Translations under genes and position numbers: made by a program
The notes under the pieces: model-generated
Database searches by the model: none
Told to the model about the DNA's origin: nothing
The model's input: only the letters and a program-made list of their open reading frames with translations
Assembly: GCA_951406725.2 (NCBI GenBank)
Contig: OX597824.1
Span: 11,098,001-11,162,000 of the forward strand
Origin: Octopus vulgaris
Lineage: Eukaryota
DNA length: 64,000 bases
Reading direction: 5' to 3'
In this document: positions 42,550 through 42,568 of the stretch, one piece after another
Layout: every line of letters starts with the position of its first letter
Numbering within the stretch: position 1 is the first letter of the stretch

Positions 42550-42568
42550 CGTGGGTTGATTCTATTGG
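42550..42568 (-). promoter_or_regulatory. ER stress response element (ERSE, CCAAT-N9-CCACG)
   Basis: Minus strand reads CCAAT agaatcaac CCACG with an exact 9-nt spacer, about 130 nt upstream of the ATG of the KEEL protein. Confidence 0.8.

Follow-up and report, generated by a model that had tools for sequence, protein, structure and literature searches.

The window, that is the whole 64,000-nt stretch of Octopus vulgaris DNA analysed here, carries on its minus strand a gene of five GT-AG exons spread over 23.5 kb, encoding a 145-aa protein that ends in KEEL and shares 144 of its 145 residues with a named Octopus sinensis protein. Upstream of the first coding exon lies an exact ERSE, and the features of the locus are as follows:

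42423..42586, minus strand: unspliced 5' leader, gap-free in one RNA-type contig (X9 record 25, 42237-42586, depth 107)
42550..42568, minus strand: exact ERSE (CCAAT-N9-CCACG) found by motif scan, at -146 to -128 from the ATG
42568-42550, minus strand, parts of the element: CCAAT box at 42568-42564, 9-nt spacer, CCACG at 42554-42550, then T
42237..42422, minus strand: coding exon 1, with a signal-like N-terminus, a short acidic linker and the first three cysteines of the Cys-rich domain
26692..26763, minus strand: coding exon 2, Cys-rich domain including the CPC turn; agrees with P0001
25733..25787, minus strand: coding exon 3, second CxxC run; agrees with P0001
22372..22408, minus strand: coding exon 4, amphipathic helix after the Cys domain; agrees with P0001
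18861..18948, minus strand: coding part of exon 5, ending in KEEL-stop (KEEL codons 18875-18864)
41600..42600, no strand: CpG-undepleted patch over exon 1 and the ERSE (CpG observed/expected 0.83-1.1 in 200-nt bins)

Exon 1 matches the genome once, and its junction with exon 2 is present in two runs, X9 and X10, which we guess to be of RNA type; the loose end of the X9 contig at 42237 is the start of exon 2. Because this contig is gap-free over 42237-42586, the leader is unspliced and the promoter lies here. The contig begins upstream of the CCAAT box, so that at least some transcripts contain the ERSE, and a second contig, from run X10, ends at 42438; contigs retain the furthest read and hence cannot fix the main start site. 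The first-pass annotation would count a transcription start far from the element against its reading; the ERSE sits at the transcript 5' end with no 5'-UTR intron, and the X9 contig runs 18 nt past it. The CpG-undepleted patch is as expected of a promoter region and suggestive only, the ratio for the window as a whole being 0.46 and a separate high 200-nt bin at 43200 reaching 1.28. Just upstream of the ERSE, a separate low-depth contig (3.4) of RNA-type run X10 covers 42635-42791 and represents either a divergent transcript or DNA carry-over.

The element is, as had been described, an exact CCAAT-N9-CCACG on the strand of the gene, and its distance of about 130 nt to the start codon was likewise borne out, the ATG lying at 42422 and the 3' end of the element 127 nt upstream. 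It is the single match in the window, shuffled versions of which yielded on average 0.04 exact copies and at least one copy in 4 of 100 shuffles. Across the 2.8-Gb genome we counted 984 exact matches, or one per 2.85 Mb, against 1,227 for the reversed pattern used as control; most matches are therefore noise, and a match alone means little. The chance of an exact ERSE is about 2% per 64-kb window and 1.2e-4 within 350 nt of a given ATG, with some 3-4 gene starts per genome expected to carry one by chance (25-30 thousand genes assumed), a number that would be higher if CpG-rich promoters are richer in half-sites. The weight of the ERSE thus comes from its standing at a gene that encodes a product with ER-type ends, and genes for such products form a small class. 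An origin of the element in a repeat was ruled out, the 181 nt around it having one genomic match, which makes the region single-copy at the sensitivity of the search. Contigs from two other organisms have both half-sites identical and one spacer base changed, at an overall divergence (about 2%) too shallow for this constancy to count as more than weak evidence.

In order to read the element in its genomic context, ER chaperone and foldase genes were located in the same genome (G000) by Pfam searches and their upstream DNA was read; the gene names used here are assignments from the Pfam match and the exon peptides. Eight of these genes have a located start, and an ERSE is present at six of the eight (exact at 2, with one mismatch at 4), a count favoured by several starts having been located beside a motif match, although their signal-peptide exons are clear. 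The exact copies belong to calreticulin (at -212, antisense) and PDIA6 (at -186); GRP94, P4HB and PDIA4 have a one-mismatch ERSE and BiP has two above a non-coding first exon, the mismatch falling in the CCACG half in all four genes. PDIA3, the seventh, has an exact ERSE-II, and MANF a one-mismatch ERSE-II only. The statement that the ERSE marks ER chaperone genes thus holds in octopus. About 20 kb from MANF lies an HSP70-family gene in head-to-head arrangement with it (G000:C1:165870306-165903848), and a separate locus (G000:C18:43283161-43363951) holds a cluster of eight HSP70 copies that lack introns and occur in both orientations, one of them interrupted by a stop codon.

The start was not located for four further genes (calnexin, a DUF3456 gene, an SDF2-like and an ERdj5-like gene). 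About 20 kb before the calnexin coding start there is a GT donor with an exact ERSE 85 nt above it, and a further exact ERSE lies 5.5 kb upstream of the DUF3456 exon, just above a GT donor. An exact ERSE 42 kb above the ERdj5-like gene and a one-mismatch copy near the SDF2-like gene could not be linked to either gene. Over 444 kb of DNA from this genome, the exact pattern occurs six times at spacer 9 and at none of the spacers 6-8 and 10-12, two of the six sites having been chosen for the motif and one looking repeat-borne. Nine 10-kb non-ER loci, mostly of the HSP70 and HSP90 families and with promoters not located, contained no ERSE within one mismatch.

The candidate factors are also encoded in this genome, as an ATF6-like gene with a bZIP exon at C10:34863527 and downstream exons with luminal motifs, and as an XBP1-like bZIP exon, both assigned by their sequence motifs. 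A PDB search with the ATF6-like exon returned CREB only (E 0.036), and no database name confirming ATF6. Taken together with the chaperone ERSEs, these genes indicate that the ERSE code and its factors are in place in octopus. Octopus chaperone promoters keep a vertebrate-type ERSE code, which is useful for work on the invertebrate UPR.

Orthologous upstream regions were sought in metagenomes with a degenerate pattern built on the last part of exon 1 together with its donor, giving 37 loci, from which four were dropped (two incomplete, two outside the family); the other 33 yielded 26 non-redundant regions from about seven lineages (14 from a His-rich clade, 6 coral-like, 1 identical to Paralvinella and 5 unplaced, with no confirmed mollusc). 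Within 500 nt of the ATG, which here stands in for a mapped start, two of the 26 regions contain an exact ERSE in the octopus orientation (L033 at -61 and L038 at -391). Shuffled regions gave a mean of 0.01 and never reached two in 400 shuffles, and two in 26 is above chance (P ~1e-3) even at ten times the octopus rate. The exact pattern was absent from the same 26 regions at four other spacers, and an exact ERSE from the distal (16.7 kb) and intron (32 kb) DNA of the orthologous loci. The other 24 regions lack an exact copy, one of them having a one-mismatch copy, and the L038 element is missing from 13 sister regions of its clade. The expectation that orthologous promoters share the element is hence supported above chance and fails in most of them; the sequences suggest a link of the ERSE to this family that is recurrent yet not universal. 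Searches of GTDB genomes and viral contigs gave no further orthologous promoters.

The UPRE (TGACGTGG/A) occurs in four of the 26 regions against a shuffle mean of 0.56, and was not counted because four intron-1 regions carry it too and its matches fall in two related groups. Two regions, L028 and L036, have a common block with an antisense UPRE-type octamer at about -165 from the ATG, with diverged flanks; XBP1 control may replace the ERSE in some lineages. At its start (positions 1-240) the L033 contig repeats the end of exon 1 in inverted orientation, probably an assembly artefact; this duplication does not take in the L033 ERSE.

In the 145-aa product the N-terminus is hydrophobic (Kyte-Doolittle mean 2.5 over the 11 residues 9-19), and no further hydrophobic stretch follows residue 20; the 14 cysteines, at residues 55-102, make up eight overlapping CxxC motifs. 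Its ends were correctly described from the outset as a signal peptide, here judged by hydropathy only, and KEEL; the 20 closest proteins include 17 with KDEL, RDEL or KEEL ends. With a predicted signal, no internal span and a KDEL-like end that orthologues keep, the protein has the features of a soluble, KDEL-retrieved ER resident, as far as these can be read from sequence. The first-pass annotation went too far in counting three independent signals for membership of the ER-stress regulon, since the signal peptide and KEEL concern location and not regulation, which leaves one regulatory signal.

Pfam gave no match to the full protein up to E 1, and for eight of nine relatives none beyond one sub-cutoff Toprim match; the PDB sequence search found no solved relative (best E 0.18). 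In the AlphaFold model, which is all-helical, a helical hairpin (54-70, 80-100) is followed by two helices, with a pLDDT of about 90 over the Cys domain and an overall pTM of 0.40. Four fold searches with two models (pTM 0.40 and 0.45) returned nothing at E <= 0.001 (best Z 4.1), an outcome that demonstrates neither a new nor a known fold. The ESM Atlas gave one lead at 0.83, in an HRC cluster, and nothing for P0050. A PDI or thioredoxin-fold oxidoreductase was considered and rejected, the protein having no thioredoxin domain (Pfam up to E 1) and an all-helical model.

A profile search recovered 209 cluster representatives at E <= 0.001, of which the 150 listed were used here, and taxon names were looked up for 30 proteins, most of which have none. 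The named members come from molluscs, an annelid, cnidarians, vertebrates, Sphaeroforma, Pelomyxa, Planoprotostelium, Vitrella and Ancoracysta, so that among the members looked up the family reaches amoebozoans, an alveolate and Ancoracysta. A hydrophobic N-terminus is seen in 79 of the 87 sequences with a whole Cys domain and tail, and the C-terminal end is xxEL or xxDL in 58 (strict [KHR][DE]EL in 33) and YL in nine, including named cnidarian members. The cnidarian and related proteins P0019, P0020, P0023, P0025, P0027, P0030-P0032 and P0040 end in EYL or SYL and not in KDEL; this variant is conserved and may still serve retrieval. In a quick tree with few forks resolved, the vertebrate HRC-like rows, which have no retrieval tail, group on one long branch nested within the animal clade; judging by sequence, vertebrate HRC would be a derived branch of a pan-eukaryotic family and its long-branch exception. 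One member of 88, P0080, is a 373-aa protein with the Cys domain ahead of two thioredoxin domains and a KDEL end. This PDI-like architecture was not found elsewhere and is, as a single sequence, a hint of a possible tie to oxidative folding; scoring 7,999 candidates for longer or fused forms gave none, a weak negative.

Since the gene shares the ERSE with octopus chaperone genes, it is likely switched on when proteins misfold, and we consider it a likely new ATF6/NF-Y target and member of a known regulon. Like that regulon, it combines an exact CCAAT-N9-CCACG near the 5' end with an ER-type product, in a genome whose chaperone genes carry the ERSE; it differs in that its ERSE is single copy, crossed by at least one RNA-type contig and patchy among orthologues, and in that its product is not among the known chaperones, foldases or ERAD factors. 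In mammals, ATF6(N) acts with NF-Y through the CCACG half, according to the available text of PMC1475745. By the same scheme, NF-Y would sit on the CCAAT of the octopus element, ER stress would lead cleaved ATF6 to join it on CCACG, and the two would raise the gene alongside calreticulin, calnexin, BiP, GRP94 and the PDIs. Once in the ER, the product would acquire as many as seven disulfides and be returned there by KEEL-dependent retrieval, as a predicted disulfide-stapled, luminal, non-catalytic adaptor that aids PDIs and chaperones. We hold this adaptor or folding role tentatively, below even chances in our own estimate, and favour it over a calcium-channel regulator, a metal buffer and an HRC-like calcium store. 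MANF, CRELD2 and SDF2L1 are small non-catalytic ER-luminal UPR targets, and the octopus protein resembles them, by analogy only, as a small cysteine-containing or adaptor-like protein with a KDEL-variant tail and an ERSE-type promoter; it differs from them in that Pfam and PDB searches found no sequence or fold match.

The alternative that survives best, rather unlikely in our judgement, accepts regulation through the ERSE and makes the product a regulator of an ER calcium channel or pump, by an ancestral HRC-triadin interaction, in place of a folding helper. The defining features of HRC are a signal sequence, His/acidic repeats, polyglutamate and 14 cysteines in a CxxC pattern, and the homologous human Cys domain (residues 609-699) binds triadin (both in the available text of PMC6171002). 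The octopus protein has in common with vertebrate HRC the signal sequence (by hydropathy only) and the C-terminal cluster of 14 CxxC cysteines, and is 47% identical to a tortoise HRC-like protein over 68 aa; it differs in being 145 aa long, in having an extra C-terminal helix and KEEL, and in lacking His-rich/acidic tandem repeats and polyglutamate. In liver cancer cells human HRC lowers PERK-ATF4-CHOP signalling, an effect that the authors relate to SERCA2 (PMC8364458, in the part available, from which the word promoter is absent). An ER-stress role had been thought undescribed for the family, which this link in print contradicts for human HRC and leaves standing as regards a promoter or ATF6 result. 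SERCA2 binding maps, in the sources as available, to the His/Glu-rich region that the octopus protein lacks; protists without muscle have family members, and one member is fused to thioredoxin domains, all of which argues against a channel or pump regulator.

It is less probable still, and in our view unlikely, that the CCAAT box works alone as an ordinary NF-Y element of a constitutive ER gene that is not stress-induced, with CCACG a chance match or a weak remnant. The missing exact ERSE in 24 of 26 orthologous regions, the 984 matches genome-wide and the RNA-type contig that crosses the element all suit this reading, as does the lack of an induction record in mollusc heat-stress supplements. 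The name HRC is absent from four of these (PMC12070547, PMC10869415, PMC11505284 and PMC4657243, as far as available; older annotations may differ), two of which list calreticulin as up. Scallop ATF6, IRE1 and GRP78 are reported to be heat-induced (PMC9680081, from the part available), and in an ER-stress study of conjunctiva HRC is unchanged (1.19-fold, p 0.21; PMC11008754, likewise in part). Against a CCAAT box acting alone stand the chance of 1.2e-4 at the observed distance from the ATG, the coincidence with a gene whose product has ER-type ends, the strict 9-nt spacing at octopus ER genes and the two further animals with an ERSE in the same orientation.

Improbable, and more so than the two preceding readings, is a luminal metal buffer induced together with the chaperones, in which the CxxC runs bind zinc or copper. 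The eight overlapping CxxC motifs invite this reading, the HRC cysteine pattern has been described as suggestive of heavy-metal binding (PMC6171002, in the text available), and His-rich inserts were gained in an invertebrate orthologue clade. The pattern of cysteine loss speaks against it: seven of 77 aligned sequences have lost both C61 and C94 and none has lost just one of the two, the losses falling at three places on the quick tree, C58 and C98 are lost together in P0088, and the number of cysteines is even (14 or 12) in all 82 pattern-matched domains. That cysteines vanish in fixed pairs across the hairpin points to disulfides, as does the oxidising ER lumen, and a nested disulfide ladder would fit these sequences better than metal sites or redox CxxC pairs. 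Finally, a muscle SR calcium-storage protein like vertebrate HRC, as the automatic NCBI/UniRef names, the homologous Cys domain and the 23 acidic residues of 145 would have it, is very improbable, as the first-pass annotation had also concluded, because His/acidic repeats are missing and protists have the family, and in view of two histidines, a length of 145 aa against 170 kDa, a near-neutral charge (23 D+E, 19 K+R) and KEEL/KDEL ends that vertebrate rows lack.

Additions to the soluble part of the ATF6 regulon are uncommon. The protein described here falls into no Pfam family, has no relative of solved structure and goes by a database name that misleads; if its membership is true, an ancient HRC relative joins the protein-folding stress response. 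The literature search found nothing on ERSE or ATF6 control of any HRC-family gene and nothing on the short KDEL form, in texts available in part; subscription papers and bioRxiv supplements lay outside it and may hold expression data. A C. elegans gene is labelled HRC in a table row of PMC3048360, in the part available. Confirmed induction would give a function lead for a pan-eukaryotic ER protein, recast the Cys domain of cardiac HRC as an ancient core and provide an ER-stress marker for molluscs. The wider interest is the Cys-rich KEEL/KDEL family itself. It is conceivable, if doubtful, that the protein is a very old ER folding component, a seven-disulfide hairpin found from protists to molluscs, KDEL-retrieved, partnered with PDI-type enzymes, to which it is fused in one lineage, and wired to ATF6 in animals. 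Vertebrate HRC would then have branched off late and become specialised for muscle, acquiring the calcium-binding repeats and dropping the retrieval tail; if so, the HRC Cys domain would have an unstudied proteostasis function.

Several minor observations were made along the way. Exon 1 of one invertebrate clade (L020, L022-L025, L029, L032, L034, L035, L038, L040, L041, L044, L045, L047, L048, L051, L053 and L056) encodes, after the signal peptide and ahead of the Cys domain, a His-rich and acidic insert in the same place as the vertebrate HRC repeats and possibly a parallel gain. Between about -145 and -45 from the ATG, loci of this clade have a common CAAGAAC core (15 of 19) and then TGACGTG (9 of 19), perhaps a core promoter peculiar to this clade that includes a UPRE- or CRE-like site. 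In the window, open frames at 44893-45372, 27269-27553 and 16954-17481 resemble decayed ends of LINE-type retrotransposons. Elsewhere in it there are many SINE-like copies, long microsatellites at 16100-17000 and 48200-48700, and short TTAGGG-like runs in introns at about 39380-39410 and 20200.
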